From: Acidimicrobiia bacterium
GTDB taxonomy: Bacteria > Actinomycetota > Acidimicrobiia > Spongiisociales > ZC4RG35
Direction of reading: 5' to 3'
DNA length: 64,000 nucleotides
NCBI GenBank assembly: GCA_028285585.1
Contig: JANQOU010000008.1
Location: forward strand, 116,298-180,297
Shown here: positions 46,972-62,780 of the stretch, piece after piece
Position numbering within the stretch: the first letter of the stretch is position 1
How the letters are laid out: each line of letters opens with the position of its first letter
Position numbers and translations under genes: made by a program
The notes under the pieces: model-generated
Told to the model about the DNA's origin: nothing
Databases searched by the model: none
The model's input: the letters and a program-made list of their open reading frames with translations, nothing else

Positions 46972-46996
46972 CGGCGGGTCGCTCCATAGCTATCGG

Positions 46997-47008: not shown

Positions 47009-47211
47009 ACACAATAGGACAGAATCGCGAAGGCTCCCAACCGCGAGACTTCGTCCAAACAAAGTCTGGACCGTTGAACCGGACCATCAAAGGCTGACGT
47101 CTATGATCCCTGCTTCGATTGCTACGCCATACCCTGCCAGACCGACCAGGACTTTCATGATGGGGCCCAGGCCTGGCAGAATTCTGCGGAACCTCGACTA
47201 TTGATACGCAA

Positions 47212-48201
47212 ATGACGACCATCCGCGATGTCGCAGCCCACGCAAACGTCTCACCGGCCACGGTCTCGAGAGTCATCAACGGGAGCAACGAGGTCAACCC
47301 GTCACTAGCCGCTCGAGTCTGGGACTCGGTGGCAGTCCTCGACTATCGGCCAAGTCGACTGGCCCGGTCCCTCAGATCGCAGAGATCCTTGGTGTGGGGT
47401 CTCATCATTTCGGACATCCGAAACCCGTTTTTCACCGACATGGCAAGGGGCGTCGAAGATGCAGCCGCCGACATGGGCTACTCGGTCGTTCTGTGCAACG
47501 CCGACGAGGACACCGCTAAGGAGCAGCGCTACATCGAGTTGATTCTCGATGAGCGAATGGCTGGTTGCATCATCACACCCGCGCACCTCGTTGATTCCAG
47601 CGTCCAACCATTGCTTGATGCCGACATACCCGTTGTGGCTGTTGACAGGGAGATCTCTGGCACCGCCACCGACCTGGTCCGGTTGGACAACCGGGAGGCC
47701 GCTGCGCACGCGACTCGGCACCTCCTCGAGCAGGGTTACGTGCGCGTGGCTTGCATTTCAGGACCTAAATCAACCACTACGGGCACAGACAGGGCCGCCG
47801 GATATCTCGAGGCACTCGAGGGTCGCGAGGCCCTCCTTCAATACGCAGACTTCAGGGTCGAAGGTGGATATCGAGCTGCGCAGTCCCTCCTCCGTCGAGC
47901 AGAGCCGCCCGACGCGATCGTTGTTGGCAACAACCTCATGACGATCGGGGCTCTACGAGCGATCTCGGACACTGGCCGGTCAACTCGAGACTTCGGCCTC
48001 ATAAGTTTCGACGAGCTGGCGTGGGCCGACCTGGTCGATCCCGCTCTGAGCACGATAGGCCAGCCAACATACGAAATTGGCAAGGCTGCGGCTGGCCTGC
48101 TGATGAAACGGATTCAGGGCTCGACTACTCCCCCCGAGATCCTCACGCTGGAGTCGGAAATGCACGTTCGAGAGTCCAGCATCAGGCGGCACCGCAGCTA
48201 A
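47212..48201 (+). CDS. LacI-family transcriptional regulator
   Basis: MTTIRDVAAHANVSPATVSRVING HTH and periplasmic-binding-like core. Confidence 0.9.
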   Translation: MTTIRDVAAHANVSPATVSRVINGSNEVNPSLAARVWDSVAVLDYRPSRLARSLRSQRSLVWGLIISDIRNPFFTDMARGVEDAAADMGYSVVLCNADEDTAKEQRYIELILDERMAGCIITPAHLVDSSVQPLLDADIPVVAVDREISGTATDLVRLDNREAAAHATRHLLEQGYVRVACISGPKSTTTGTDRAAGYLEALEGREALLQYADFRVEGGYRAAQSLLRRAEPPDAIVVGNNLMTIGALRAISDTGRSTRDFGLISFDELAWADLVDPALSTIGQPTYEIGKAAAGLLMKRIQGSTTPPEILTLESEMHVRESSIRRHRS

Positions 48202-48279
48202 AACTCTCGTCGAACGGTTCACCTGACCTGTCGCAGCAATCTCCATCGTTTGACACATCGAGCACGCTCGACGTAGCCT

Positions 48280-48291
48280 GAAACCGATTTC
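48280..48291. promoter_or_regulatory. LacI-type operator-like site GAAACCGATTTC
   Basis: Upstream of the isomerase-like gene. Confidence 0.5.
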
Positions 48292-48357
48292 TCAGATGCG
48301 GAGGATTAGATCCTGAACACCCCAGACCTTCCCCCAAAGACGAGGAATGTCCATCTC

Positions 48358-49938
48358 GTGGCCAGCGGCGACGCTCGAGAACCTGCGAACATTGCCGGCT
48401 GGCCTGCCCAACAGCGTCTGGAGGCTGCCATCACCAAGGCGGCAGCTGAGCGCGGGGTCATCGTGAAGCGGGCAACCGAGCCGGACATTGCGCGCGGACA
48501 CGGATTCATTTCGAGCCAGCGAGAAGGTCTGGACCTCTTTGCAAGGATCGATCCCGACGACGCCATAATCATGGCGGAGGCCATCTGGCAGTTCAGTCAC
48601 CATGTCCACGGAGGCCTACTCCATCACAAGGGACCGGTGCTGACAGTGGCAAACTGGAGCGGGCAGTGGCCGGGGCTCGTTGGCCTGCTCAACCTCAATG
48701 CATCCCTAGCCAAGTCGGGGCGCGAGTATTCGACCCTCTGGAGCGAGAACTTCGACGATGACTTCTTTCTCAGCGGCTTTCAAGAGTGGCTCGAAACCGG
48801 CACAATCACTCACGACTCGTCGCACGTGCGACCTTTCGACCCTGATCAAGCAAAGGGAAAGGGTGGCACCGTCGGACGTGAAGCCGGAGAAAGCCTCCTC
48901 CGCTCGAAGTCGATCATCGGTGTCCTCGACGAAGGCTGCATGGGAATGCACAACGCCATCCTCGACGATCACTTCCTGCACGAAATCGGCATCTTCAAGG
49001 AGCGGCTGAGTCAAACGGCCTTGATCGCAGAGATGGAGCGTGTGGCCGACGAAGATGCGACGGCGGCAAGAGTGTGGCTCGAGGACCGTGAGTTTGAGTT
49101 CGTCACCGGTGAGGATCCGGAGACATCGCTGACCGACGAGCAGATTCACGCGCAATTGAAGATGTACATTGCGACCGGGCGCATTGCCGACCGCTACAGC
49201 TGCGACGCCATAGGAATCCAATACCAACTCGGCATGATCGATGTGGCTCCAGCCTCAGATCTCGCCGAGGGCCTCCTCAACAACAGCGAACGGCCGCCAA
49301 TCCTCAGAGTGTCGGACGGCGAGGAGATACTCCCCGGACGCCCTATCCCCCACTTCAACGAGGTCGATGAGGGCATTGCAGTAGATCTAGTGGCCACAAG
49401 CAGGATCTGGCCCGCTCTCGGGCTCGATCCGTCGGCGACACTTCACGACGTGCGTTGGGGCGAGGACTTCGATCTGCCCGGAGGAACAGAATTCGTGTGG
49501 ACGTTCATGATCTCCGGATCCGTACCGGCATCACACATCGACGGGGGGTACGCCTCAGCGAAGTCATACCGCCAGCCACCTATGTATTTTCGGTCGGGCG
49601 GGGGGACACTCAGCGGAGTCTGCCGTCCTGGGCCGGTCGTTTGGAGCCGGGTGTATCAGCTCCCCGACGGACTCCATGCCGACATTGGACTTGCAACTGC
49701 CGTTGAGCTCCCAGAAGCCGAAACGGAGAGAAGGCTGAAAGAGACCACACCTGAGTGGCCGATCATGCACGCCACGCTTCACGGCGTGTCGCGAGATCAG
49801 TTCATGGCGCGGCACAAGTCCAATCATGTGACGGTCGCCTACGCAGACTCACAGGAGGCAGCCAAGACAGCGCTAGAGGCCAAGGCGGCTTTCTTCGACC
49901 GGATCGGCATCACAGTTCACCTCTGTGGAATAACCTGA
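48358..49938 (+). CDS. L-fucose/L-arabinose isomerase-family-like protein
   Basis: LVASGDAREPAN...ANWSGQWPGLVGLLNLNASL resemble that family. The frame is open back to 48310 and GGAGGA at 48300-48305 sits 7 nt before CTG 48313, so the true start may be non-canonical and upstream. Confidence 0.55.
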   Translation: MASGDAREPANIAGWPAQQRLEAAITKAAAERGVIVKRATEPDIARGHGFISSQREGLDLFARIDPDDAIIMAEAIWQFSHHVHGGLLHHKGPVLTVANWSGQWPGLVGLLNLNASLAKSGREYSTLWSENFDDDFFLSGFQEWLETGTITHDSSHVRPFDPDQAKGKGGTVGREAGESLLRSKSIIGVLDEGCMGMHNAILDDHFLHEIGIFKERLSQTALIAEMERVADEDATAARVWLEDREFEFVTGEDPETSLTDEQIHAQLKMYIATGRIADRYSCDAIGIQYQLGMIDVAPASDLAEGLLNNSERPPILRVSDGEEILPGRPIPHFNEVDEGIAVDLVATSRIWPALGLDPSATLHDVRWGEDFDLPGGTEFVWTFMISGSVPASHIDGGYASAKSYRQPPMYFRSGGGTLSGVCRPGPVVWSRVYQLPDGLHADIGLATAVELPEAETERRLKETTPEWPIMHATLHGVSRDQFMARHKSNHVTVAYADSQEAAKTALEAKAAFFDRIGITVHLCGIT

Positions 49939-50014
49939 CCACTAGCGGCCACGGAAAGGTGTGGTCGCTGTGCGCTCGAGTTCTCGCTCAAAACCCTCTT
50001 GACTCTCACGTAGC

Positions 50015-50530
50015 GTGAGGGCATACGGTGTCGGCATGATCGAAGTGACCACACCTACGAGCAGCCAGGAGAATCCTGAGCTGCTCGGACAGCACGAGGG
50101 ATGGGACGTGTACCCCATGCCTGTCTTCGTGACCATCAACACCCCCGACGTCTCTCGCATGGCCAGCTGGTTCCGTGACGCGCTCGGATTCGGCGTCATG
50201 TTCGTCGGGCCGGACTCCGGCGACGGCCCGACAATGGTCCACATGCGACGCATGAAGTACCAGGACGTCCTCATTGCCGCGGGCCTCGAGCACAACATCG
50301 ACCGAGACAGGTCGCTCACAGTCACCTTTCAGGCCATGACGGACACCGAAGTCGACCTCTTGGCTGACCGGGCCGCCGGCCACGGCGATGTCGAAGGCCC
50401 GTACGACACCCCTTGGAACACCCGAGAGGTGACAATGATCGACCCCGATGGGCACCATTTTGTCTTCACTGGCCGGCGCACCGATGCGCCTGTGGGGAGT
50501 CTCGACGAAGCGACCGGGATCGACCAGTGA
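50015..50530 (+). CDS. VOC (glyoxalase/bleomycin-resistance) family protein
   Basis: 171 aa, paired beta-alpha-beta-beta-beta module character (WFRDALGFGVMF...IDPDGHHFVF). Confidence 0.7.
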   Translation: MRAYGVGMIEVTTPTSSQENPELLGQHEGWDVYPMPVFVTINTPDVSRMASWFRDALGFGVMFVGPDSGDGPTMVHMRRMKYQDVLIAAGLEHNIDRDRSLTVTFQAMTDTEVDLLADRAAGHGDVEGPYDTPWNTREVTMIDPDGHHFVFTGRRTDAPVGSLDEATGIDQ

Positions 50531-51288
50531 CCCGGCTGCGAACCGTCGGTGAAGTGGCAGCCTTGGCCGGCACCACCGTCCGAGCATTGCACCACTACGA
50601 CGAGATCGGTCTCCTGGAGCCCTCTGTGCGTAGCGCCACCGGATACCGCCTCTACGCCGAGACTGACATCGTCCGACTCCACTCAATCATCCACTGGCGG
50701 TCGCTCGGGATCGGGTTGGAGGAGATCGCGGACCTGATCGACGCTCCGGATGTCGACCTCGCCGTCGGGCTCAAACGCCAGCTCGAGCGGATGAGAGACC
50801 ACGCCAAAGACCTGGAAACAATGATCGAAGCCGTCGAAGCAACCATCGCCTCGCTGGAGAAGGGAGATGACATGACCGATGATGCCGTCCACAGCATGTT
50901 CAACGGATTCGACCCAAGTCGTCACGACGAGGAGGCCGAACAGAAGTGGGGCGACACTTCGGCGTACCATGAGTCTCAGCGACGAGTGGCGAGCTACAAC
51001 GCAGACGATTGGCAGCGTTTTGCAGACGAGAACGGTGCCAACATCGAAGAGTTCGTGGCTCTGATGAGGGATGGTGTCGACCCCGGCGACGAGGCCGCAG
51101 CCGAAGCGGCCAGAACACACGGCGAGCTCATCGATCGCTGGTTCTACCCGCTCCAACCTGAAACCCACCTTGGCCTTGCGGATGCCTACGTCGCCGACCC
51201 TCGATTCGAGTCCACCTACGAAGCCATTGCACCCGGGCTGGCCCGGTACATCAGCAATGCGATACAAGCTCTCCACACTGCCGACTAA
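50527..51288 (+). CDS. MerR-family regulator with TipAS-like C-terminal domain
   Basis: VGEVAALAGTTVRALHHYDEIGLL HTH. GTG 50527 overlaps VOC stop (GTGA); the longer ORF-track start overlaps the VOC gene. Confidence 0.85.
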   Translation: MTRLRTVGEVAALAGTTVRALHHYDEIGLLEPSVRSATGYRLYAETDIVRLHSIIHWRSLGIGLEEIADLIDAPDVDLAVGLKRQLERMRDHAKDLETMIEAVEATIASLEKGDDMTDDAVHSMFNGFDPSRHDEEAEQKWGDTSAYHESQRRVASYNADDWQRFADENGANIEEFVALMRDGVDPGDEAAAEAARTHGELIDRWFYPLQPETHLGLADAYVADPRFESTYEAIAPGLARYISNAIQALHTAD

Positions 51289-51304
51289 TGCCAGACTTCA
51301 CTTC

Positions 51305-51691: not shown

Positions 51692-52177
51692 ATGAAGAAC
51701 CGGATGCACCCACGCACAGCTGTGGTGACGGCAATAGCAGCTCTTCTTGTCCTCGCCGCATGCACTCCCGCAAAGACATCAGACTTACCGGAGATCACGG
51801 ACGCCAGGGTGGGCCAGCCGACAGGCCCGAACGCTGCCCTCTATCTCACCGCCCGTGGCTACGGCAAGGCCGACACTCTCATCTCGGCGGCCACCGACGC
51901 CGCTGAGACCGCGGAGATCCACCAGACGACCTCAAACGACGACGGGACAATGGGTATGCAACCCGTGGGCTCGTTGGAGCTGCCTGCAGACGGTGAACTT
52001 GTCCTCGAACCAGGCGGCTACCACATCATGCTGCTCGGTGCGGACCGTCAAGACGTCGGAGCCATCGTCAAAGTCACTCTCACATGGAGCCAAGCCGGTG
52101 AGCAGACGATTGAGGCGGTGGTTGTCGACCCGTCGGAAACCATGGGAGACATGGATCACTCACACGCGGATCACTGA
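51692..52177 (+). CDS. Copper chaperone PCu(A)C lipoprotein
   Basis: Lipobox LAACT. Met/His motif region (TMGMQPV...GGYHIMLLG) typical of PCuAC/DUF461. Confidence 0.85.
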   Translation: MKNRMHPRTAVVTAIAALLVLAACTPAKTSDLPEITDARVGQPTGPNAALYLTARGYGKADTLISAATDAAETAEIHQTTSNDDGTMGMQPVGSLELPADGELVLEPGGYHIMLLGADRQDVGAIVKVTLTWSQAGEQTIEAVVVDPSETMGDMDHSHADH

Positions 52178-52217: not shown

Positions 52218-52670
52218 CTAGCTGGACTCTCTCCAGTCAGGACGATCCGGCGCGTCAGGCTCCCAGGCGCGGATGAAGGTCGTGACCGCCTTGATCTGCT
52301 CCGACGTCAACGGGCCGCCGAAGTCGAGCGAGTAGGCGTTCATCTGGCTTCCCGGCACACCGACTGCGATCAAGCCTTGGATCTGGTCGTCGGTGGCCAG
52401 CTGAAGAAACTGCATCGAGTTGAGAGCTGGAGCGAGCCCGCCCTCACCGTTCAGGCCGTGGCAAGAAGCGCAGTTGAACTCCCAGATCGATGAGCCCTGC
52501 TCCTGTAGCGACTCGAGTTGCAACTCACGGGACTCTGCCCTCGCGCTCGGCTCGAACCATCGGTAGAAGGGGAAGACCAGGGCCATCAGAAGCATGAGGA
52601 CCAACCCGACGACCATGACCCTGTTGGTGGACCGGTTGAGCTCTTCGTCGGTCTGGTAGTCGTAACCCAT
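52218..52670 (-). CDS. Membrane-anchored monohaem cytochrome c
   Basis: N-terminal TM, CASCH haem site, distal Met region (GSQMNAY). ATG 52670 overlaps Rieske stop by 1 nt. Confidence 0.85.
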   Translation of the reverse strand: MGYDYQTDEELNRSTNRVMVVGLVLMLLMALVFPFYRWFEPSARAESRELQLESLQEQGSSIWEFNCASCHGLNGEGGLAPALNSMQFLQLATDDQIQGLIAVGVPGSQMNAYSLDFGGPLTSEQIKAVTTFIRAWEPDAPDRPDWRESS

Positions 52671-53185
52671 CAGGCTTCGTGCCCCGAGTCTGTGCAAGAC
52701 GGCCCGGTGGCCGGCTCGTCGGCAGTGATGACACCAGGGGCAGGTCCTTCGATAACCGCTCCAGTGTCGATGTAGATCAAACCGTCCTCTTCGCCGATCT
52801 CAATCGGGTATTCGTCCATCCCCCTCGGTGCCGGCCCGGACCGGTAGTCGCCGGCCCTGTTGAACGTGGTGCCATGACAAGGACACTCGAATTGGCTCGA
52901 TGTGTTGCAGAAGGGAACGCGACACCCGAGATGGGTGCATTTCTCTGAGAGGGCTTTGACCTGACCGTCGATCCGAACCAGGTAGGCGCGGGCTTGGGGC
53001 ACCTCTATCGCACCAGTCTCAGGGACCGCTTCGGGCGGCACCGTCCTCACCTTGCCGCCGAAACCCGATGCTTCGAGCGGTTGGAGAAGGTCCCACGACG
53101 TCCAGATTCCGGCGGCTCCGATGAGAGTGATGCCCGCCTTCCACATGCGGGTCAGGAAGTCACGCCGGTTCAACATGTCACTCAT
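52670..53185 (-). CDS. Rieske [2Fe-2S] subunit with Tat signal
   Basis: RRDFLTRMW Tat motif; CTHLGC...CPCHG cluster boxes. Confidence 0.9.
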   Translation of the reverse strand: MSDMLNRRDFLTRMWKAGITLIGAAGIWTSWDLLQPLEASGFGGKVRTVPPEAVPETGAIEVPQARAYLVRIDGQVKALSEKCTHLGCRVPFCNTSSQFECPCHGTTFNRAGDYRSGPAPRGMDEYPIEIGEEDGLIYIDTGAVIEGPAPGVITADEPATGPSCTDSGHEA

Positions 53186-53727
53186 AGCTCACCGTGCCAT
53201 TCCTCCCAGGGCCAGACCCAGGCCCAGTTGGGACCTCGGAAAGCGAATCCAATGATGGTCAAGACAATCCAGAGGACCATGAAGGCGGTGAAGGTGTACA
53301 CGGCCACCTTTCGGTACTTCGGGTCGTGGAACGCCGTTCGATCGATGTACGGGAGGGCGACGAGCCCGATGATGATGGCTCCGGGTACCAAGACCCCCGC
53401 CACCAGGGGGTGGAAGTGGGCGAGCAGCTCTTGGAGCGCGACGAAGTACCAGGGCGCCTTCTCGGGGTTCGGCGTCACCGTCGGGTTGGCAATCTCCTTG
53501 AGAGGAGCGTCGAAAAGGACCGCCAGCACAAGCACGAGCAACAAAACGGCCAGAGCGGCGACGGCGTGCCGGACGAGCAGATGGGGCCAGACCATTGCCA
53601 TCTCGTCATCGGCCGGCCTCTTCTCCTCGCCCGCCGCAGGCTTGCCCGGCACCACACCGAGAACTCTCTGGCCTTTGATCACCTTTGGATCCCCCGATCC
53701 AATTGTCACTGGCTGCTGGTCACTCAT
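53182..53727 (-). CDS. Cytochrome b C-terminal part (b6f subunit IV-like)
   Basis: PEKAPWYFVALQELL (PEWY-type motif), 3 TM. Confidence 0.85.
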   Translation of the reverse strand: MSDQQPVTIGSGDPKVIKGQRVLGVVPGKPAAGEEKRPADDEMAMVWPHLLVRHAVAALAVLLLVLVLAVLFDAPLKEIANPTVTPNPEKAPWYFVALQELLAHFHPLVAGVLVPGAIIIGLVALPYIDRTAFHDPKYRKVAVYTFTAFMVLWIVLTIIGFAFRGPNWAWVWPWEEWHGEL

Positions 53728-54448
53728 CGGGTGATCCTTCGCTGGTCAGCATCGAGTCTTTCCTCCATCTCCAAAGATGAACAGCGAGCGTGAGTACAAC
53801 GGCCGCCGGGAGCACGGCGACGTGCAAGACGTAGAAGCGGATGAGGGTCGACGAGCTGACTGTCGTGCCTCCGACCAGAATCTCCTGCACGGTGTCGCCG
53901 ATGTAGGGGACGTACCCGGCCATCGAGGTCCCGACAGTGATCGCCCAGTACGCCAGCTGATCCCAAGGAAGCAGGTAGCCGGTGAACGACAACAGGAGGG
54001 TGAGCACCAGCAGAACCACGCCAATGACCCAGTTGAACTCCTTTGGCGACTTGTAGGCACCGCGATAGAAGACCCTGGCCATGTGTGCCGCCACCGCGAT
54101 GACCATCAGGTGGGCCGACCACCGATGGACGTTCCTCACGTATTGACCGAACGCCACGTCCGTCTGGATCGTCTGTATGTCGGTGTAGGCCTGGGCCGGG
54201 GACGGCACATAGAAGAACATGAGGTAGATGCCTGAGGCGATCAGCGACCCGAACAGCACGGCTGAGGCCACACCGAGATACCACGAGTACCGGAACCCGA
54301 TCTCCCTCTTGGGGACTTTCACCGGGTAGATGTGGAGGAAGAAGTTCGACCAGTGCCCAGCTGCTCGATCGCGCGGCGTCTTCCGATCCGGGTTGCGGAC
54401 TATCGACTTGCCGACAGTCGACTTCTTGAAGCGATCGATAATTGTCAT
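53720..54448 (-). CDS. Cytochrome b N-terminal part (b6-like, dihaem)
   Basis: Four-helix core with His pairs (RNVHRWSAHLMVIAVAAHMARVF...). ATG 54448 overlaps upstream TGA (ATGA). Confidence 0.85.
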   Translation of the reverse strand: MTIIDRFKKSTVGKSIVRNPDRKTPRDRAAGHWSNFFLHIYPVKVPKREIGFRYSWYLGVASAVLFGSLIASGIYLMFFYVPSPAQAYTDIQTIQTDVAFGQYVRNVHRWSAHLMVIAVAAHMARVFYRGAYKSPKEFNWVIGVVLLVLTLLLSFTGYLLPWDQLAYWAITVGTSMAGYVPYIGDTVQEILVGGTTVSSSTLIRFYVLHVAVLPAAVVLTLAVHLWRWRKDSMLTSEGSPDE

Positions 54449-56223
54449 GCCGGAACTCCCACACCAGTCCAGACACCCATGCTGAGGGCGTCGGTCGGAC
54501 ACCTTTCAATGCACAAGGCACACCTGATACAGCGCTCCTCGTCCAAGAGAAGAGCTGTGCTGCCACGCGCCGTCACGTCGACCCGCTCTGCCGGGACCAG
54601 CGAGATGACATCCACCGGGCAAACGTCCGAGCAGAGAGCGCAGAGGACGCACTTCTGGACATCGAGGAGGATGTTGCCGAAGCAACGCAAGCAGCGGCTC
54701 GCCTCGAGTCGAGCCATCTCCTCGGTGAACCCCGTATCAACTTCGGCTAGGCCGATACGCCGCCCGGTGTCGAGGGTTGGGACATCGACTCTGTCGTAAC
54801 GGTCGTAGGTGTCGTCGAAACGGTGGAAGTCGGGCACGACCTCCATGTGCCCACGGGTTCGATCTGGCACTTCGCCACCGAAATGCCGGTGAATGTCTTC
54901 GGCAGACCTTCGGCCGTCGGCGATGGCGTCGATCAAGGTCCGGGGGCCCTTGGCTGCATCTCCGCCCGACCAGATGCTCTCGATCGAGGATCTACCCGTC
55001 TCGGGGTCTATCTGAATGGTCCTCCTCGGCGAGATGTCAGGGCCGTCGGGACCCAAGGCGTCGAGATCGATTGCCTGTCCGATGGCCAAGATGACTGTGT
55101 CTGCATCGAGGACGCTTCTGTCCTCCTGGTCGAACTCGGGGGCGAAACGGCCTTCGGAGTCGAACACCGAGAGCACCCCTATCGTCTCCAAGCCGGTCAC
55201 CGTGTTTGTCTCGCCGGTGACGATTCTCGCCGGGCCTCGGCGGTGGACGAACTTGATCCCTTCCTTCTCGGCCTCTTCGATCTCAAACTCATGCGCAGGC
55301 ATCTCCTTGCGGTTCTCCAGGGAGATCACCGTGATGTCGCGAGCTCCGGCACGGGCCGCGGTTCGGGCCGCATCGAAGGCGACTTGGAGAGATGGGCCCT
55401 CATCGTCGTGAACACCTCTGTCGGCGGCAGCCGAGTACTCGTCGGCCCTCAAGGCTGTTCTGGCAGCGTCCATGGCGACGTCTCCGCCACCGATGACGAC
55501 AACTCGCTCGCCGACTTCCACCTCGAAGCCACGGTTCATGTTGATGAGAAACTCGATGGCGCGGAACACACCGTCGGCCTCGTTGCCTTCGATGTCGAGG
55601 CCCCGCCCCAGCGTGGCGCCGATCGCCAGGAACAGAGCGTCATGACGCTCGCGTAGCTCACCGAGAGAGACGTCATGTCCCAGACGCGTGTCGTACTCGA
55701 CTTCAACGCCGAGGCTGAGAATGGCGTCGACGTCGCGCTGCAGGACGTCTCTATCAAGCCGATACTCCGGGATCCCCAGCCACATCGCCCCGCCCAGCTT
55801 GTCCGTGGCCTCATACACGGTGACCTGATACCCCCACTTGCGCAGGTCATGAGCGGCAGCCAAGCCCGCGGGACCGCCGCCGACGATGCCGACGCTTTCT
55901 GCCCTTTCGACTGGAGGAGGGGAGGCCACCGTCTTCCAGGCCTCGCCGTCGACTTCCGTCCCGTACTTCTCCGTCACGAAGCGCTTCAGCGCTCGAATTG
56001 CTATCGGCTTGTCGATCTCGCCGCGCCGACAGGCGTCTTCACAGGGCGCGGCACAGACACGGCCGCAGACCGAGGCGAAAGGGTTGGGGAGACGGGCGGT
56101 CATGTAGGCCAACTCGTCGTTGCCGTCTGCGATGGCAGCCACATACATGCCCGCGTTGGTGTGGACTGGGCAGGCAGCGAGACACGGGATATTCTGGTCG
56201 TAGAAGTGGAGATCCCAGCTCAT
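54445..56223 (-). CDS. GltD-like FAD/NAD(P)-binding oxidoreductase with N-terminal Fe-S site and two C-terminal ferredoxin-type [4Fe-4S] motifs
   Basis: PCLAACPVHTN...CGRVCAAPCEDACRRG, dinucleotide fold IVGGGPAGLAAAHDL and VVVIGGGDVAMD, C-terminal CVLCALCSDVCP and CIRCALCIERCP. ATG 56223 overlaps upstream TGA. Confidence 0.85.
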   Translation of the reverse strand: MSWDLHFYDQNIPCLAACPVHTNAGMYVAAIADGNDELAYMTARLPNPFASVCGRVCAAPCEDACRRGEIDKPIAIRALKRFVTEKYGTEVDGEAWKTVASPPPVERAESVGIVGGGPAGLAAAHDLRKWGYQVTVYEATDKLGGAMWLGIPEYRLDRDVLQRDVDAILSLGVEVEYDTRLGHDVSLGELRERHDALFLAIGATLGRGLDIEGNEADGVFRAIEFLINMNRGFEVEVGERVVVIGGGDVAMDAARTALRADEYSAAADRGVHDDEGPSLQVAFDAARTAARAGARDITVISLENRKEMPAHEFEIEEAEKEGIKFVHRRGPARIVTGETNTVTGLETIGVLSVFDSEGRFAPEFDQEDRSVLDADTVILAIGQAIDLDALGPDGPDISPRRTIQIDPETGRSSIESIWSGGDAAKGPRTLIDAIADGRRSAEDIHRHFGGEVPDRTRGHMEVVPDFHRFDDTYDRYDRVDVPTLDTGRRIGLAEVDTGFTEEMARLEASRCLRCFGNILLDVQKCVLCALCSDVCPVDVISLVPAERVDVTARGSTALLLDEERCIRCALCIERCPTDALSMGVWTGVGVPA

Positions 56224-57068
56224 ATCCGCTTCTCCCGCTGGAACCACCACAAGCCCAGGATGCCGATGCCCAGGGCACCGGCCCAGACGGCTGTCGTAAC
56301 GAAGTCTTGGACGCCTCTCGGCAGCCGGGTCATCACCTCTGTGGACAGCAGAAGTGAAGGCAGGAAGACAGTGGTTGCGGCGAAGTACACCACTATGAGC
56401 CCGCCCTTCAGAGCCGCATCGAGCCGATTCGGGCTCCTGCGATCGATGACTCCGATGATCCGCGGCGCGAGGACCCAGAGGGCGATCCCGATCGCGATGA
56501 GATAGGCAACGGAACTGAAGGTCCCGACCACCGCAGGAAGCGTGGTCCCGGCTACGGGGCCTGCGCTCTCCGGCGCGGGTGGCGTGCCGCCGGGGACAAC
56601 GAGGTCGTTCTGGAGGAAAGCGATGACTGCGTCGACCTGGTCGTCGTCGAGTGTGCCGAACGAGGGCATGACAGCGTCATAGGTCTCGCCGTTGACTTCG
56701 ATGGGACCGGATAGGCCATTCTGGATGACCTCTCGCAGGTAGTCGGTGTCGTCGATGCGCGGGTTGCCCTTCAAAGGTGGAAAGGCACCCGAGAGGCCGA
56801 GGCCGCTGGGCTGATGACAGGAGGAGCAATTGTTTGTGTAGACCTGCTGACCCTGTGCTAGTTGCTCCGTGTTCTGGTCATCGCCGGACTGCGCCAAGCC
56901 GGTGACCGGTATCAGAAGAAAGGCGATGAATGCGACCACAAGCACCAAGGTGCCCGTGCGGGGGCTCCTCCACTTGTCATCCGCTCTCGCGGCGTCCACC
57001 CGGACCTCCTGTGATCGCGTCGAATCCACAAGATGGACCCGTCCCCTCCATGGTCTACGAGGAGACAC
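56220..57068 (-). CDS. Monohaem cytochrome c with C-terminal multi-TM domain
   Basis: Signal/anchor, CSSCH, Met region (DAVMPSF), then about 3 hydrophobic helices. Start position uncertain. Confidence 0.8.
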   Translation of the reverse strand: MSPRRPWRGRVHLVDSTRSQEVRVDAARADDKWRSPRTGTLVLVVAFIAFLLIPVTGLAQSGDDQNTEQLAQGQQVYTNNCSSCHQPSGLGLSGAFPPLKGNPRIDDTDYLREVIQNGLSGPIEVNGETYDAVMPSFGTLDDDQVDAVIAFLQNDLVVPGGTPPAPESAGPVAGTTLPAVVGTFSSVAYLIAIGIALWVLAPRIIGVIDRRSPNRLDAALKGGLIVVYFAATTVFLPSLLLSTEVMTRLPRGVQDFVTTAVWAGALGIGILGLWWFQREKRI

Positions 57069-57172
57069 TTCAATCGGAAGGGCCTTTTGGCCCTATTGGC
57101 TCGCAACATCCGTCAGCAACCTTGCACAGGACAGGTTGAGAAGATGGGAGTTTCGTGACGACCGAGTCGGAA

Positions 57173-57307
57173 ATGGCGCCTAGCTCCGAGCAGGAGCACT
57201 TCAAGCCGGTGGGGACGGTGTTCATCCTCGCCGCTTTCGTGCTCACCATCATCCTGCTGTGGGGCTCGGTCTACTTGATTCTGTTGAGTCGGGGCGCAAC
57301 CGGATGA
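57173..57307 (+). CDS. cbaD: ba3-type cytochrome c oxidase subunit IIa (not in ORF track)
   Basis: Hand translation MAPSSEQEHFKPVGTVFILAAFVLTIILLWGSVYLILLSRGATG; pattern KP.G...TI..W..VY....RG as in Thermus CbaD. TGA overlaps subunit II ATG (ATGA). Alternative GTG start at 57155. Confidence 0.65.
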   Translation: MAPSSEQEHFKPVGTVFILAAFVLTIILLWGSVYLILLSRGATG

Positions 57308-57834
57308 GCCCGACCTCAGAGAAGACCAAGGAGTCGATGGGGGTCGACCCGTTCGAGCGCAACTGGATGATCTTCAGCATCGGCATGCTGGTGGTGTTCT
57401 TCACACTGGTCACGGTGGCCGGATTCGCTCTCGGCTTCCAGGTGCCCGGAGTGGAGACGAAGGTGGACCCTCGAACCGTCACCGTTGACCCTGCCTCACC
57501 TTTCTCAGAGCCGGGCCTCAGAAAAGTGTCGGAAGGCAATTACGAGGCGTATGTCGTGGCCCGGACTTTCAGCTACGAGCCCCGCGAGATAGAAGTCCCG
57601 GTGGGCTCAAAAGTGACGATCTACGTGACCAGCCCCGATGTTCAGCACGGCTTCAAGGTGCAGGACACCAACATCAACATGCAGATCGTCCCCGGGCAGG
57701 TGTCGAAGCTCGAGTACACCTTCGATCGGGTTGGGGAGTTTCCGTACATCTGCACCGAGTTCTGCGGGATCGGGCACGCCGCAATGTTCGGAGTGGTCAA
57801 GGTCGTACAGCCCGGTGAAGGAGGTGACCAGTGA
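57304..57834 (+). CDS. cbaB: ba3-type cytochrome c oxidase subunit II (CuA)
   Basis: One TM plus cupredoxin; CuA site HGF...CTEFCGIGHAAM. ATG 57304 preferred over GTG 57259. Confidence 0.9.
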   Translation: MSPTSEKTKESMGVDPFERNWMIFSIGMLVVFFTLVTVAGFALGFQVPGVETKVDPRTVTVDPASPFSEPGLRKVSEGNYEAYVVARTFSYEPREIEVPVGSKVTIYVTSPDVQHGFKVQDTNINMQIVPGQVSKLEYTFDRVGEFPYICTEFCGIGHAAMFGVVKVVQPGEGGDQ

Positions 57835-59495
57835 CGGTCTCCGACGTGAAGGTGGGCTATGAGCTGACGACGAAGGAGAAGCGGTTCATCGGATGGCACA
57901 TCCTGGTTGCCGTCCTCGCTCTCCTGATAGGCAGCCTCATGGGGCCGCTTCAATCGTTCGAGTTCTCAGGGCTGAACCTCTATCGATACCTGGAGCCCAT
58001 CCTTCAGGACTACTACCAGGGCCTCACGCTGCACGGAGTCCTCAACGCTCTCGTCTGGACGACCTTCTTCATCGTCGGGTTCACGAACCTGACGACCATC
58101 AAGGGACTGGGCCGACCGCTGTCTCACCCGCTGGTGAACAAGATCGGCTTCTGGACGATGCTGACCGGGCTGGTGATGACAGCCGTGCCTCTGCTGCTGG
58201 GCGAAGCCACGGTGCTCTACACCTTCTACCCGCCACTCGAAGCCAGCTGGGCGTTCTATCTGGGATTGACCCTCGTCGTAGTCGGAAGCTGGATCGAGGG
58301 GTACGGGTTCTTCCTCACCTACCGCGGCTGGCGCAAGGACAACCCCGGCGTGCGGTCACCGTTCATCGCCTTCGCCGGCGTCCTCAACATGGCCATGTGG
58401 CAGATCGCCACGCTCGGCATAGCGGTCGAGATCCTGACCATGCTCCTCCCCTGGTCGGTCGGGCTCATCGATGCCACCGATCCTGAGCTGGCCCGGACCT
58501 ATTTCTGGTTCACCGGGCACCCTCTTGTCTACTTCTGGCTGCTGCCGGCATACATCTCCTGGTACGCGATGCTGCCCAAGCAGGCCGGGGGCAAGCTGTT
58601 CAGCGACTCGCTGGCGCGGCTCGCGTTCTGGCTGTTCCTGCTGGTCTCGATTCCCGTCGGGTTCCACCATCAGTTCGTCGATCCCGGAATCCCGGAAGGC
58701 TGGAAGTGGATACATGCGGGGCTCACCTACGCAGTGTTCTTCCCATCGATGCTGACTGCGTTCACGGTCATTGCCTCGCTCGAGCACGCTGCCAAGCAGC
58801 GCGGCGGCAAAGGGCTGGTCGGGTGGATTCGCGCCTTGCCGTGGTCGGATCCGTCGGTGTCGGCACAGCTTCTCGCCGGGATTCTGTTCATGTTTGGCGG
58901 CATCGGGGGGCTGGTCAACGCCAGCTACAACATCAACACCGTCATCCACAACACGGCTTGGGTGCCGGGGCACTTCCACCTCACCGTCGCCACAGCGGTG
59001 ACACTCTCGTTCATTGGCATCAGCTACTGGCTGGTCCCACATCTCTCCGGGAGGAAGCTGTGGAAGCCCAAATGGGCCGTGATTCAGACGTGGACGTGGT
59101 TCGTGGGAATGATCATCTTCTCCAATGCGATGCACGTCCTTGGCCTGCTCGGAGCGCCGCGGCGGACCCCGTTGGGGCAAGCTCCGTACGTTCCCGAGGA
59201 GTGGGCCGGCCACCTTCTCCGGGTGAGCATCGGTGGCGGCATCCTCTTCATCGCCGTGATCATGTACGTCTGGACCATGTACAAGACGGTTCGCGGCCCG
59301 AAGGTCGACCCCTCCGAGGTTCCCGAAGTGCCGATCGCCGAATCGATGCGTCATCCACAGCTCACCCCGGCCTGGCTCGATACCTTCAAGCCTTGGCTCA
59401 TCGGAGCGATCGTGCTGATCCTGGTGGCCTACGGCCCACAGCTGTTCGAGCAGATCTCAAACATCTCTCTGAACTCACCCGGCATCGGTCCGTAG
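57831..59495 (+). CDS. cbaA: ba3-type (B-family) cytochrome c oxidase subunit I
   Basis: YFWFTGHPLVYFWLLPAY and other haem-copper oxidase blocks closely resembling Thermus ba3 subunit I. Confidence 0.9.
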   Translation: MTVSDVKVGYELTTKEKRFIGWHILVAVLALLIGSLMGPLQSFEFSGLNLYRYLEPILQDYYQGLTLHGVLNALVWTTFFIVGFTNLTTIKGLGRPLSHPLVNKIGFWTMLTGLVMTAVPLLLGEATVLYTFYPPLEASWAFYLGLTLVVVGSWIEGYGFFLTYRGWRKDNPGVRSPFIAFAGVLNMAMWQIATLGIAVEILTMLLPWSVGLIDATDPELARTYFWFTGHPLVYFWLLPAYISWYAMLPKQAGGKLFSDSLARLAFWLFLLVSIPVGFHHQFVDPGIPEGWKWIHAGLTYAVFFPSMLTAFTVIASLEHAAKQRGGKGLVGWIRALPWSDPSVSAQLLAGILFMFGGIGGLVNASYNINTVIHNTAWVPGHFHLTVATAVTLSFIGISYWLVPHLSGRKLWKPKWAVIQTWTWFVGMIIFSNAMHVLGLLGAPRRTPLGQAPYVPEEWAGHLLRVSIGGGILFIAVIMYVWTMYKTVRGPKVDPSEVPEVPIAESMRHPQLTPAWLDTFKPWLIGAIVLILVAYGPQLFEQISNISLNSPGIGP

Positions 59496-59502: not shown

Positions 59503-61665
59503 ATGGACGGCGGCGGCGAGGCGAGAGACCCCGCCAAGCATCCCTACATCGATGGACTGGCCCGTGTCACGTTTGCCGCGGAGTCACCGGTGCGGCGGTT
59601 GGTCGGGTCCGGCCGGCTCAACCCGCTTCCGCATGCCGGGACCATCAGCGTGGTCCTCTTCATCATCGTGGTGATCACCGGGGTCTACATCACCCTGTTC
59701 TTCGAATTCGGCTTCGAGGCCTCGCATCGTTCGGTGGAGAGGCTGACGTCGCATCCGATTCAACGGTTCATGCGGAGCCTGCACCGGTACTCGTCAGCCG
59801 CACTCGTGCTGACGACAGTCGTTCATGGCTGGAGGATCTTCGTCGCGTCGCGATTCAATGGGCCACGGCGTTGGCGATGGTTGACCGGCCTCAGCGCCCT
59901 TCTGGTCGTCTTCCTGGCCGGTGTGACCGGCTACTGGCTGCTTTGGGACGAACGGGCCCAGCTTCTCAACGAGGCGACTGCCTCTGTGTTCGACGACCTG
60001 GGGCTGGACACGGTCGTCGTCAGCTCTGTCCTCACCGCCGATGGCAGTGGCTGGCAGGTCTTGTTGCTGATCTGGTTCGTCCACCTGCTCACCACCGCCG
60101 TGATCGGATGGTTCCTATGGAGGCACCTCCGCCGGACAAGTCTGCCGTGGCTGCCACCTCGTCTGTGGACCTGGCTGATGGTCGGTGCGCTGGGGCTCGT
60201 GTCGATCGCGTTTCCGGCAGAGCTCCTTCGGATCGCAGATCCTTCGAATCTCGTCGACAGCGTGCCGGTCGACCCCTTCTTCCTGTTCTTGCTTCCAGGC
60301 CTTGCCGCTCTCCCCGGGCCGCTGGTGTTGGCAGTGTTCGGATCGATCTCGGCTTTCGTGGCTGGCCTCCCGTGGCTGCTGGCACGCGGCAAGTCCCAGG
60401 TGGTGACAATCGACGCCAACCTGTGCACCGGATGCGAACTGTGTGTTGTCGACTGTCCTTATCGCGCCCTTCAGATGATCTCGCTAGGCGAGCGAGTGAT
60501 CGCCGAGGTCGACCCGGCGTTGTGTGTCGCCTGCGGCATCTGCATCGGATCATGCGTCTTCGACGCCATCGACCTTCCCGGTGCCACACTCCCCCAAGCC
60601 GCCGACATCGCAGGCCGCGATGTGGTGGTCACCTGTGAGCGGCACCGGCAGCTGAGCGGAGTGAATGATCGCTACGTTCTCACCGTCCGCTGCGCGGGTG
60701 TGGTGAGTCCAACAGCGCTCACGAGGCTCCTCAAGAAGGGTGCCCGGTCGGTGCAGGTCGTCGGCTGCCCGCCAGCGGACTGTGCGTTTGGAGTCGGCAA
60801 TCAACTGGCCGAGGAGCGGATGTCAGGTGAGCGCCGTCCCCATGTGCCGCGGGGCTCTGCCGCCATGATCAGCCGCGACTTCGTGGCGCCTACCGCACTC
60901 GAGCACGCCATTGCAACGCCCGGGACCCACCTATCGGCCGACCCCCACGACATCCCCAGAAATCGAGTGCGGATCGGCATGACCGGTGCGATCGTGCTCG
61001 GCTCAATGCTCCTGGTCGGTCTTGCCACGACCATCGCCCTGACCGTCAACCGGCCGGAGGCCGCGGTCCTCGTCGTGGTCCACCACAAACCCGGAGCGGA
61101 GATCGCCGGCACCGGTGTGACCAGTGGATCTGTCGGCACACCCACGGTCCTCAGGACCGCCATCGGAGCTGCGCAGCCCACGGAAGAGCAGATCGGAGAC
61201 GGCGGTGTGGCGTCTGCCGTCGTCGAGTTGGCAGCTGACGCCGGGGAGACCCACCTGCTGATCGAACTGCTGGAGGGCGGAGACAGGACCGTCATCCAGG
61301 ATGGCAGCGTGCAGCTTGCTGCCGGTCGGCGCCTCGTGGTGATTGTGGAGGACGAGGTCAATGTGGACGCCGAGCTGGGCCGCCAGATCTTCGAGTCCTC
61401 CAAGGCAGGCTGCACCGTTTGCCACTCCGTCGACCCCGGCGTCGAGTTGGTTGGCCCGAACCTGTCAGATATGGGGACCGTGGCTGCGAGCAGAGCCCCC
61501 GGGTTGTCGGCCGAGGAGTATCTCTTGGAGTCGATCGTGGATCCGGACGCCTTCTTGGTCGACGGCTACCGGTCCGGGCAGATGCTGGATATCTATGAGG
61601 AGACTCTCACGAGTAGGGAAATCGAAGCACTAGTTGCATACTTGCAATCGCTGGAGGTCGAATGA
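59503..61665 (+). CDS. Multidomain fusion: dihaem cytochrome b domain + 2x[4Fe-4S] ferredoxin + MvhD/FlpD-like domain + TM + monohaem cytochrome c
   Basis: His94/His108 and His194/His208 each 14 residues apart in TM helices. Also CTGCELCVVDC and CVACGICIGSC; VVVTCERH...VRCAG...VVGCPPADCAFGVGNQLAEER; TM at residues 493-515; CTVCH with downstream Met. Starts 7 nt after the cbaA stop. Confidence 0.8.
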   Translation: MDGGGEARDPAKHPYIDGLARVTFAAESPVRRLVGSGRLNPLPHAGTISVVLFIIVVITGVYITLFFEFGFEASHRSVERLTSHPIQRFMRSLHRYSSAALVLTTVVHGWRIFVASRFNGPRRWRWLTGLSALLVVFLAGVTGYWLLWDERAQLLNEATASVFDDLGLDTVVVSSVLTADGSGWQVLLLIWFVHLLTTAVIGWFLWRHLRRTSLPWLPPRLWTWLMVGALGLVSIAFPAELLRIADPSNLVDSVPVDPFFLFLLPGLAALPGPLVLAVFGSISAFVAGLPWLLARGKSQVVTIDANLCTGCELCVVDCPYRALQMISLGERVIAEVDPALCVACGICIGSCVFDAIDLPGATLPQAADIAGRDVVVTCERHRQLSGVNDRYVLTVRCAGVVSPTALTRLLKKGARSVQVVGCPPADCAFGVGNQLAEERMSGERRPHVPRGSAAMISRDFVAPTALEHAIATPGTHLSADPHDIPRNRVRIGMTGAIVLGSMLLVGLATTIALTVNRPEAAVLVVVHHKPGAEIAGTGVTSGSVGTPTVLRTAIGAAQPTEEQIGDGGVASAVVELAADAGETHLLIELLEGGDRTVIQDGSVQLAAGRRLVVIVEDEVNVDAELGRQIFESSKAGCTVCHSVDPGVELVGPNLSDMGTVAASRAPGLSAEEYLLESIVDPDAFLVDGYRSGQMLDIYEETLTSREIEALVAYLQSLEVE

Positions 61666-61706
61666 CGAAAGACGATCGGATACCGGACGTGACGCCCGGG
61701 CCTGAG

Positions 61707-62102
61707 TCAAGGATCGGGGAAGATCTCCTCAGTGCCAGGCTGGTCGACGCCGTCGATGGTCCTGGTGCCAAGGAGCCGACCGTCGTCCATGATCTCGTAT
61801 CGAGCAGTGCCGGTGGAGACGCCACGGGAACCGTCAGCGATCACCCAGTCGACTTCGAGGAAGTCACCTTCGACTCGTCCCTCGCCGCGAATAATCGCAC
61901 CGGTGACCACCCACTCCATGACGACCTCGCCGGCAGCGTCGCCAGCCGTGATCGAGAGACGTCCGGTGTACTCAGCACCGACCGGGTCGACGCCGTTGAC
62001 GACATACGTACCGAGGATTCCGGGGCCTTGCTCGAGCTGGGCTCCGGGGAGACAACCCGCGAGAAGAACGGCGAAGAGAGTGAAGACGAGCGCCCTGACC
62101 AT
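61707..62102 (-). CDS. Hypothetical lipoprotein
   Basis: Lipobox LLAGC, coherent 131-aa sequence; the antisense + strand ORF here looks like a shadow extension. Confidence 0.6.
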   Translation of the reverse strand: MVRALVFTLFAVLLAGCLPGAQLEQGPGILGTYVVNGVDPVGAEYTGRLSITAGDAAGEVVMEWVVTGAIIRGEGRVEGDFLEVDWVIADGSRGVSTGTARYEIMDDGRLLGTRTIDGVDQPGTEEIFPDP

Positions 62103-62123
62103 GACGACGAGTCTACGACTGGG

Positions 62124-62780
62124 ATGCGGCCTCTCTTCAAGTGGCTGATCGGGTTCGGGCTTGTCGTCGTGCTGTCAGTGATGGCGTTTGCGATCTTCGA
62201 GCCAGTGCAGGTCCTCCCCCGGCTTCGCATCGGCCCTGGTTTCGCTCTGGTCGACCAGTCGGGCATGTCGCTCACCTCTGAGGATGGGCGCGGTGCGGTG
62301 ACCCTCTACACCTTTCTTCCCAGCGACTGCCTCGATGACTGCTCGTCCGTGAACGAGACGATGGCACAAGTCGGCGAGCGGGTGGCCTCACTGGATCTCG
62401 GGGACGCCGAATTCCGGCGGGTGACCGTGGCTCTCGACACCGACGAACCATCCGCACTGACCGCAGCAGCCGAGGCATCAGGAGCAGACGGCACGAGTTG
62501 GCGGTGGATCGGTGGGGACAATGAGACCTTGCGAACCGTGGTCGGCGAGGGGTTCGGCGTGTACTTCGAGGACACCGAGGACGGGGTGGCCTTCGACCCG
62601 GTCTACATAGTCGTGGATGGCAACGGGCTCGTTCGCGGTGACTACCGATACTCGACTCTCGCCTCCGATGCCGATCGGCTCACCAGGCACATCTCAATCC
62701 TCGCCGAGGAGTTGAGAAACGCGTCCGGTGCGGCTTCTCTCGTCTATGAGGCCGCCCACGTCTTTCTCTGTTACCCATGA
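62124..62780 (+). CDS. SCO1/SenC-like thioredoxin-fold protein (divergent)
   Basis: ATG 62124 gives TM anchor + FLPSDCLDDC (CxxxC). The 154-aa N-terminal extension in the ORF track is antisense to the lipoprotein gene. Confidence 0.65.
   Translation: MRPLFKWLIGFGLVVVLSVMAFAIFEPVQVLPRLRIGPGFALVDQSGMSLTSEDGRGAVTLYTFLPSDCLDDCSSVNETMAQVGERVASLDLGDAEFRRVTVALDTDEPSALTAAAEASGADGTSWRWIGGDNETLRTVVGEGFGVYFEDTEDGVAFDPVYIVVDGNGLVRGDYRYSTLASDADRLTRHISILAEELRNASGAASLVYEAAHVFLCYP

Follow-up and report, generated by a model that had tools for sequence, protein, structure and literature searches.

Why should an operon for a Rieske/cytochrome b complex contain the gene of a cytoplasmic flavoprotein of the NAD(P)-linked type, and in which direction would electrons pass through the resulting complex? 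These questions are raised by a locus at positions 57068-52218 of a 64-kb window, by which we mean the whole stretch analysed (64,000 nucleotides of contig JANQOU010000008.1, assembly GCA_028285585.1, from an Acidimicrobiia bacterium). The layout is the norm for Acidimicrobiia and not peculiar to the present genome. The kind of complex is already known, the Acidimicrobiia version being a further member with traits of its own: it lacks the Cys for haem cn, has a three-helix subunit IV-like protein (SUIV) and two monohaem cytochromes c, and shows another gene order.

Structure and conservation of the operon

All six genes lie on the minus strand. The first (56220-57068) encodes a 282-aa class I monohaem cytochrome c (CSSCH) with an N-terminal signal or anchor (Pfam Cytochrom_C at residues 71-154, E 4.8e-14), and its C-terminal membrane part, counted by eye from the sequence, consists of three hydrophobic helices after the haem domain, a refinement of the C-terminal transmembrane domain described in the original prediction. 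It is followed by the gene of the 592-aa flavoprotein (54445-56223), a cytoplasmic iron-sulfur (FeS) flavoprotein of the NfnB/GltD/DsrL type in which no membrane segment is found (Pfam Fer4_20 at residues 11-86, Pyr_redox_2 at 111-437 with E 6e-27, and Fer4_7 at 524-579). The third and fourth genes encode a 242-aa cytochrome b6-like protein, hereafter b6 (53720-54448; a four-helix dihaem subunit, Pfam Cytochrome_B, E 1e-46), and the 181-aa SUIV (53182-53727; three helices, Pfam Cytochrom_B_C, E 1.4e-11). The last two encode a 171-aa Rieske [2Fe-2S] protein exported by twin-arginine translocation (Tat) and carrying the motifs RRDFL, CTHLGC and CPCHGTTF (52670-53185; Pfam Rieske, E 5.6e-13), and a 150-aa class I cytochrome c with a single haem (CASCH), anchored in the membrane by its N-terminus (52218-52670; Pfam Cytochrom_C at residues 57-134). 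Pfam confirms each of the six identities that had been assigned from the sequence, including that of the 592-aa protein, for which a profile check had been proposed.

The description of the locus as six minus-strand open reading frames (ORFs) chained by short overlaps likewise holds in all its coordinates and junctions. Start and stop codons overlap in ATGA at 56223-56220, 54448-54445 and 53185-53182, the b6 and SUIV genes overlap in ATGAGTGA at 53727-53720, and the Rieske gene and the last cytochrome gene meet in TGATG with one common base at 52670. The starts at 56223, 54448 and 52670 are consistent with the N-termini of homologues. For gene 1 the longest ORF opens at a GTG at 57068; an alternative GTG at 56999 follows AGGAGG at a distance of 7 nt, and with it the protein begins as an ordinary signal peptide, MDAARADDKWRSPRTGTLVLVV... 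(window positions 56997-57068, minus strand). This second GTG is probably the true start, the 5' end at 57068 then being 69 nt too long. A simple scan for sigma-70 sites of the E. coli type, of limited value for an actinobacterium with 61% G+C, gave no promoter-like sites in the operon region, and the same type of scan, with the same limitation, gave no terminator-like sites on the coding strand inside the operon.

Conservation was surveyed with one genome per GTDB species, in which the window proteins were searched by tblastn. The 80 related loci are nearly all titled Acidimicrobiia or Actinomycetota, and the named close homologues of the flavoprotein (72-100% identity) are all Acidimicrobiia, including Ilumatobacter. 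At 76 of the 80 loci the b6 gene lies directly downstream of the flavoprotein gene, followed by those of SUIV, the Rieske protein and the small cytochrome c as far as the contig runs; at the four exceptions (L004, L038, L061 and L078) the contigs end at the flavoprotein gene. A cytochrome c of the gene 1 type, with helical tail, is encoded directly upstream of the flavoprotein at 57 loci, and a divergent haem-copper oxidase cluster adjoins the operon at 43. In L077, whose flavoprotein is 68% identical to that of the window, the ORF coordinates show three genes that each overlap the gene before them, the flavoprotein gene by 1 nt, the b6 gene by 4 nt and the SUIV gene by 8 nt; the small cytochrome c ORF overlaps the end of the Rieske gene. 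Given the conserved order at 76 of 80 loci and the overlaps kept in L077, the arrangement is not due to chance. The flavoprotein gene belongs to the operon in Acidimicrobiia, neither sporadic nor independently placed: in the window it shares start/stop overlaps with the genes on both sides, and its synteny is conserved. Two loci with the full operon, L050 and L066, come from metagenome-assembled genomes titled Gammaproteobacteria and Chthoniobacterales, with flavoproteins 70-71% identical to that of the window, and are probably mis-binned Acidimicrobiia contigs. A literature search for a description specific to Acidimicrobiia returned only a one-line mention of Ilumatobacter (PMC4122944).

The module is found well beyond this class. 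A HMMER search of 1.84 billion cluster representatives with the flavoprotein gave 3629 matches below 1e-30, many of them full-length relatives of about 600 aa at 37-50% identity. Nine distant contexts were inspected, with flavoprotein homologues of 36-47% identity, and in eight of them the gene stands directly beside Rieske and cytochrome b genes, usually in the order flavoprotein-Rieske-cytochrome b-cytochrome c. These eight homologues are P0135, P0127, P0140, P0124, P0130 (Desulfomonilaceae), P0182 (nearest named relatives Candidatus Brocadiales, at 61-63% identity), P0415 (Candidatus Brocadiales) and P0485 (Terracidiphilus, Acidobacteriota), so that the module is present in Brocadiales, Acidobacteriota and Desulfobacterota. 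The sole exception, the 636-aa P0193 (L085, 1457-3367), has a YRRS motif of the NADPH type and is flanked by NifU and DctP genes, with no Rieske or cytochrome b gene nearby; some members of the flavoprotein family are therefore not linked to a complex. A sigma-54 activator precedes the flavoprotein-Rieske-cytochrome b operon in L081 (1694-4632), L082 (1751-4176) and L083 (4311-5714), the first two of which also carry a histidine kinase gene upstream of it; this suggests regulated expression there, unlike the oxidase-linked arrangement of the Acidimicrobiia.

Cofactors and relatives of the complex

The closest solved structures place the flavoprotein among the NfnB-like modules of Bfu-type transhydrogenases. 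HMMER searches of the PDB gave 9bov_A (identical in sequence to 9bp5; E 1e-89), 9n5u_A and 8oh5_C as best matches, followed by classical NfnB/NfnI-L at about 1e-64, GltD at 1e-53 and, for residues 524-584, FwdF (5t5i). An AlphaFold2 model built on an alignment of 22 sequences (predicted local distance difference test score 87.7, predicted template-modelling score 0.87) is unconfident only at residues 269-291, and a Foldseek search with it again returned 9bov_A at the top (E 3e-51, probability 1.00, TM-score 0.72 normalised to the query). With NfnB and GltD the protein shares the Fer4_20 domain and the fold with two dinucleotide-binding domains, and with the NfnB-like modules of NfnABC and StnABC (9bov, 9n5u, 8oh5) it shares the fold, the permuted RCLxC ligands and a Lys at the position of NfnB Glu117. 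It differs from the NfnABC/StnABC module and from NfnB and GltD in standing alone at 592 aa, in having its own C-terminal 2x[4Fe-4S] domain, in the triplet S-L-E for YRR, and in its NAD domain, where one helix is duplicated and an insert is disordered.

A residue-level alignment allows the clusters to be assigned. The distal cluster has the ligands C511, C514, C14 and C65; the RCLxC pair, N-terminal in NfnB (C39, C42), here follows the flavin domain (C511, C514), as in 9bov, 9n5u and 8oh5. The proximal cluster has three Cys (C18, C57, C61) and, at the fourth position, K80, which aligns with the fourth ligand Glu117 of NfnB and is invariant over 22 diverse family members. Two further clusters would sit in the C-terminal 2x[4Fe-4S] domain, with its CxxCxxCxxxCP pairs C525-C535 and C565-C575. 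All 15 ligand Cys are invariant or aligned to known ligands. The dinucleotide-binding motifs, on whose function the original prediction depended, are both intact, GGGPAG for flavin adenine dinucleotide (FAD) and GGGDVAMD for NAD(P), and the FeS cysteines are all invariant; the protein should accordingly be expected, as far as its residues tell, to carry FAD and four FeS clusters. The helix after the glycine motif of the NAD(P) domain is duplicated (AMDAARTALRA / AFDAARTAARAG; residues 250-296, window 55350-55450, minus strand), a hallmark of the whole Rieske-linked flavoprotein family. The loop between the two helices varies in length, is disordered in the AlphaFold2 model (269-291), and is much longer and rich in Ala, Ser and Pro in L077. 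Genes of this kind are currently annotated as "formate dehydrogenase beta subunit" or "glutamate synthase small subunit-like".

That the flavoprotein is NAD(P)-linked, as first proposed, stands as regards the dinucleotide site, but the NADP(H) option appears unlikely: S301-L302-E303, invariant in 37 Acidimicrobiia sequences, aligns with the Y310-R311-R312 of NfnB that binds the 2'-phosphate of NADPH, and both Brocadiales-type flavoproteins have C-L-E in place of YRR. In DsrL-1 enzymes, whose NAD(H) specificity has been experimentally determined, YRR is lost to S/T-x-x triplets (PMC7596348). Because S-L-E replaces YRR and fits this pattern, the nucleotide is predicted to be NAD(H) and not NADP(H). 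DsrL also has, by its published description, the same domain order of 2x[4Fe-4S], FAD with embedded NAD(P) domain, linker and C-terminal 2x[4Fe-4S] (PMC7596348), although its partner is DsrAB and not a cytochrome b complex. The resemblance to DsrL-1 lies in the missing YRR and that to DsrL-1A in an insert in the NAD domain; the insert of AvDsrL-1A measures about 32 aa, and the enzyme is biased towards NAD+ reduction (PMC7596348).

In the membrane core, the haem ligands of b6 (H108/H122 and H209/H224) show no variation among 21 Acidimicrobiia sequences or in distant lineages, and the best PDB matches are cytochrome b6 chains of ordinary b6f (E 6e-42). PDB searches with the flavoprotein and b6 found no solved Rieske/cytochrome b complex having a flavoprotein subunit. 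At the position of the haem cn Cys all 21 aligned Acidimicrobiia have an invariant Tyr57 (YLGV) and thus depart from the CxGG of b6f; this Cys is also absent in Acidobacteriota, Desulfomonilaceae and several metagenome loci, and the Brocadiales-type b6 has CLGG there. A conserved N-terminal extension on the n-side of b6 (R18...K44) contains an invariant His39 (NFFLHIYP), which is kept in every flavoprotein-linked cytochrome b aligned, in nine lineages including Brocadiales, and the R229-K230 pair after the bN ligand is conserved as in b6f. SUIV has an invariant TPNPEKAPWYF, with APWY and not PEWY as the Qo motif, and a conserved cytoplasmic N-terminal motif RVLGxVPGxP; APWY occurs in all SUIV or long cytochrome b partners inspected. 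In the Rieske protein the CTHLGC and CPCHG boxes are invariant, the latter followed by Thr or Ser and then Phe, and the twin-arginine motif is conserved.

Kao & Hunte described an APWY clade comprising delta-proteobacteria, Chloroflexi, Nitrospirales, Planctomycetes and Actinobacteria, in which they listed the split cytochrome b of Ilumatobacter coccineum and of which no member was characterised at that time (PMC4122944). The complex bears the defining motif of this clade, which roughly corresponds to subfamily G of Dibrova et al., and by motif it would be assigned there. Flavoprotein-bearing complexes outside the anammox bacteria have been noted before (PMC5600118, PMC4122944).

The resemblance to the complexes proposed from anammox genomes reflects real homology. 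Aligned from end to end with P0415 of Brocadiales, which is encoded beside Rieske and cytochrome b genes, the flavoprotein shows 36% identity (617 aligned positions, E 6e-116), and its full-length identity to the Brocadiales homologues overall is 36-38%; named Brocadiales homologues were used in this sequence comparison, the Kuenenia proteins Kuste4570 and Kustd1483 being compared by published description. The Brocadiales-type locus of P0182 (L087) encodes a CLGG-type b6, a 258-aa SUIV with extra C-terminal hydrophobic stretches read by eye as two more helices, a multihaem cytochrome and a protein of the octahaem family, which is the pattern of Kuste4569-4574. Kuste4570 and Kustd1483 have been reported to be structural homologues of 9bp5 and 5t5i, and in AlphaFold3 (AF3) models their four clusters form a line that links the membrane part with FAD; the one closest to FAD has no fourth Cys and is approached by a buried lysine (PMC12954380). 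In the same models an extra haem b lies between the two cytochrome b monomers on the N-terminal His43 or His62 (PMC12954380). The window operon shares with the Kuenenia complexes (Kuste4569-4574, Kustd1480-1485) the split b6 and SUIV, the Rieske protein, c-type cytochromes, an in-operon cytoplasmic flavoprotein with FAD and four FeS clusters, 9bp5/9bov and 5t5i as best structural relatives, and a proximal cluster of three Cys and a Lys; with the Brocadiales-type locus it also shares the N-terminal His of cytochrome b and the APWY motif. By analogy, an extra haem b may be ligated by His39, whose equivalence to Kuste4571 His43 is by position only, the Kuenenia haem itself being predicted by AF3. 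Unlike the Kuenenia complexes, the window operon has a Tyr for the CxGG Cys and hence no haem cn, a SUIV of three helices instead of five, two monohaem class I cytochromes c in place of multihaem proteins, no octahaem HAO-like partner and a different gene order; its host is aerobic and it adjoins an O2 reductase.

Cyanobacterial and chloroplast b6f resembles the complex in its split cytochrome b, in being the best solved-structure match, in the RK motif after the bN ligand and in helix-D haem ligands 15 residues apart (H209 and H224 here, H187 and H202 in b6), but has the haem cn Cys, PEWY for APWY, cytochrome f and small subunits, and no flavoprotein. QcrCAB occurs in the same phylum and likewise has membrane-anchored c-type cytochromes, no soluble cytochrome c gene nearby and an adjoining oxidase; here, by contrast, cytochrome b is split, the Rieske protein is small and two separate monohaem cytochromes c take the place of the dihaem QcrC. 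An identity as QcrCAB, already discounted in the original prediction, was rejected because all three NCBIfam models score far below their cutoffs (QcrB 110 against 500, QcrA 31 against 275, and QcrC 28.5 and 32.6 against 200). The nearest NCBIfam models belong instead to Geobacter ExtOPQ (Cbc6), namely ExtP for b6 (268 bits, cutoff 290) and ExtQ for SUIV, the scores lying just below or well below cutoff. Given these scores, and since the Ext cluster encodes multihaem cytochromes but lacks a flavoprotein (PMC5877670), Ext/Cbc6 was rejected as the family.

Direction of electron flow

In the reading that we favour, the products of the six genes would form one membrane complex, a b6f-like menaquinol:cytochrome c oxidoreductase of the APWY clade made up of b6, SUIV, the Tat-exported Rieske protein and the two anchored monohaem cytochromes c, and would pass electrons to an adjoining CuA haem-copper oxidase. 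The flavoprotein would be a cytoplasmic subunit docked to the n-side of b6 and SUIV, and the chain would run from NAD+/NADH through FAD, the proximal [3/4Fe-4S], the distal [4Fe-4S] and two more [4Fe-4S] clusters to haem bN, with the putative inter-monomer haem b on His39 perhaps joining it. Menaquinol would be bifurcated at Qo, one electron going downhill through the Rieske protein and cytochrome c to O2 and the second from bP to bN and along the FeS chain to NAD+, as proposed for Kuenenia. The NAD branch would probably be reversible and act as a valve where the b-haem chain meets the NAD(H) pool.

This scheme is supported by the start/stop overlaps on both sides of the flavoprotein gene, the synteny at 76 of 80 loci and in eight of nine distant contexts, the invariant cofactor ligands, the structural relatives shared with Kuste4570, the predicted NAD(H) site and the invariant His39. 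That the flavoprotein is physically associated with the membrane complex is inferred, the linkage shown here being genetic. The adjoining oxidase with its copper chaperones would serve as the high-potential sink; an oxidase needs a cytochrome c donor and the operon offers two anchored ones, which supports the forward high-potential branch from quinol through Rieske and cytochrome c to O2. Kuenenia Rieske proteins have potentials above +300 mV (PMC12954380), which fits. The quinol-driven direction is favoured because of the anammox proposal, the tie between the flavoprotein and the APWY Qo site, and the DsrL-1A-like NAD domain, yet we would give quinol-driven NAD+ reduction by Qo bifurcation somewhat less than an even chance.

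In our own estimate, with menaquinone at -74 mV, NAD at -320 mV and cytochrome c assumed at +250 mV, the oxidation of two quinols would yield 648 meV in the high-potential branch and cost 492 meV in the NAD branch, and two electrons would also be moved against the membrane potential (about 300 meV). On these figures NAD+ reduction would be endergonic at midpoint potentials under full membrane potential, and would become feasible if the quinone pool were reduced, the cytochrome c pool oxidised and the NAD+/NADH ratio high; being near equilibrium, the reaction could run either way, and the branch is for this reason probably reversible. Besides the unfavourable midpoint balance, several points weigh against the quinol-driven scheme. 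The mechanism is a proposal even for Kuenenia, and members outside the anammox bacteria are known from sequence alone. Aerobic heterotrophs have no obvious need for quinol-derived NADH, and if this were the cell's only complex III, the diversion of bN electrons would abolish the Q cycle. The haem cn Cys of the anammox proteins is missing here, so that the n-side wiring may differ, and since the His39 segment falls inside the region of the ExtP model, from a Geobacter operon without flavoprotein, the His may be a feature of the clade and not one peculiar to flavoprotein-linked members.

The alternative that survives best keeps the same complex and reverses the flow. NADH would reduce FAD, the FeS chain would deliver the electrons to haem bN and on to menaquinone at the Qn site, and the whole would act as an NADH:cytochrome c oxidoreductase that runs its own Q cycle and has an NDH-2-like input module. 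Input from the n-side has its analogues, as FNR or ferredoxin input has been proposed for b6f and membrane-anchored dehydrogenases have been suggested as ancestors of the bc complexes. By our own estimate such a reaction would be thermodynamically downhill and independent of the membrane potential, but it would waste about 250 mV compared with complex I, the ground on which this direction was rejected for Kuenenia (PMC12954380). In favour of it, GltD-type modules normally pass NAD(P)H electrons to FeS acceptors; against it, AvDsrL-1A, which has been characterised and agrees in motif and insert, is biased the other way (PMC7596348). The predicted NADH specificity would suit Acidimicrobiia, Terracidiphilus and other aerobic heterotrophs with their catabolic pool, the b6f-like R229-K230 pair fits an input at bN, and Dibrova et al. 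read such subunits as oxidoreductases anchored by a small cytochrome b (PMC5600118); the tie of the flavoprotein to a clade with an altered Qo site would, however, be left unexplained. We regard NADH input as only slightly less probable than the quinol-driven direction.

It is very improbable that the flavoprotein is instead a soluble, independent NAD(P)H:acceptor oxidoreductase, for example for ferredoxin, which is merely co-transcribed and no subunit of the complex. Its lack of a membrane segment, the soluble partners with which GltD, NfnB and DsrL act, and the position of the YRRS-type P0193 away from any Rieske or cytochrome b gene would all agree with such an enzyme. The linkage to Rieske and cytochrome b genes has nevertheless outlasted rearrangement of the gene order in at least four phyla, translational coupling ties the gene to both of its neighbours, b6 and SUIV have conserved n-side extensions, and the homologous Kuenenia subunits have been reported to co-migrate with their complexes (PMC12954380, PMC5600118).

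Flavin-based bifurcation or confurcation at an NfnB-like FAD, in which NADH would give one electron to quinone or the high-potential b haems and the other to ferredoxin or a similar low-potential carrier (or the process would run backwards), is scarcely credible, since the bifurcating FAD of NfnB, the closest classical relative, and the two separate FeS modules at the N- and C-terminus are outweighed by the single linear four-cluster chain from FAD to the membrane part in the AF3 anammox models (PMC12954380) and by the lack of a ferredoxin gene in the operon. In the nearest structural relatives, NfnABC and StnABC, the NfnB-like module is reportedly a plain NADP(H) site, a further point against bifurcation at this flavin.

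Genomic setting and meaning for aerobic Acidimicrobiia

The operon and the oxidase cluster diverge from an intergenic region (57069-57258) that is presumed to be a common promoter region and gave no sigma-70-like match in the simple scan. On the plus strand follow the genes of a CuA subunit II (57259-57834, 191 aa, Pfam COX2), of a haem-copper oxidase subunit I (57831-59495, 554 aa, Pfam COX1, E 5e-95), of a 720-aa fusion protein, the third gene of this coxII-coxI cluster (59503-61665), and of two SCO1-like proteins (61662-63418); on the other side of the operon a PCuAC copper chaperone is encoded (51692-52177, plus strand). The oxidase is atypical, subunit II giving a weak, below-cutoff match to the ba3-type COX2 transmembrane model and subunit I scoring 118.6 bits against an aa3 CtaD cutoff of 670; it may be a B-family-like enzyme. 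It is likely to be the electron sink of the operon's cytochromes c.

The 720-aa protein combines a four-helix bundle of the dihaem cytochrome b type with both His pairs, a 2x[4Fe-4S] module, a FlpD/MvhD-like domain, an extra membrane segment and a C-terminal class I cytochrome c (CTVCH). It has 413 full-length homologues at 44-97% identity, the named ones all from Acidimicrobiia or Actinomycetota, which are annotated as 'hydrogenase iron-sulfur subunit', and it is present at about 37 of the 80 related loci. Judged by its modules it resembles a wire through the membrane that would lead from an FeS donor in the cytoplasm to the oxidase, and it may belong to the uncharacterised 'subfamily H' (PMC5600118).

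No nuo, ndh or qcr genes were found elsewhere in the 64-kb window, the rest of which holds transporters, an Mrp antiporter, a phosphoenolpyruvate carboxykinase and a sugar-utilisation cluster. The Mrp-type cation/proton antiporter cluster (about 23700-29300, minus strand) encodes an MrpA/B-like fusion of 884 aa and an MrpD-like protein of 481 aa, and the AT skew of the window is strongest there (about +0.3). The sugar cluster (41200-51300) comprises an ABC transporter, a 687-aa GHL6/alpha-L-fucosidase-like protein, a fucose-isomerase-like protein and a LacI-like repressor, the last called from sequence and not by a Pfam scan; a glyoxalase-fold protein and a MerR/TipAS regulator follow it, just upstream of the respiratory genes.

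Rieske/cytochrome b complexes that include an FeS flavoprotein with an NAD(P) site were reportedly proposed from anammox genomes more than 10 years ago and, to our knowledge, are still enzymatically uncharacterised; anammox bacteria grow slowly and are kept in enrichment cultures. The present findings add no new category of complex but place a known kind as the norm in an aerobic lineage with cultured members, where the same module forms a conserved and apparently standard complex III operon of a large actinobacterial class, is paired with an O2 reductase and is predicted to use NADH. This offers tractable organisms in which to decide whether Qo bifurcation drives NAD+ reduction or electrons from NADH enter the b haems, and a variant for comparison that naturally lacks haem cn. 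Two specific predictions can be put to the test, namely that the flavoprotein prefers NADH and that His39 ligates an extra haem. For annotation it means that these flavoprotein genes should be recognised as encoding subunits of complex III.

The widest claim is a doubtful one, namely that the main complex III of aerobic Acidimicrobiia, and it seems of Acidobacteriota such as Terracidiphilus as well, would be a reversible menaquinol/NAD(H)/cytochrome c machine in which bifurcation at Qo, pulled by O2 by way of the adjoining oxidase, lifts the second quinol electron to NAD+. If it is true, the anammox proposal would become directly testable, since relatives such as Ilumatobacter are cultured, and reverse electron transport that does not draw on the proton-motive force would take place in ordinary aerobes as a widespread mode of respiration.

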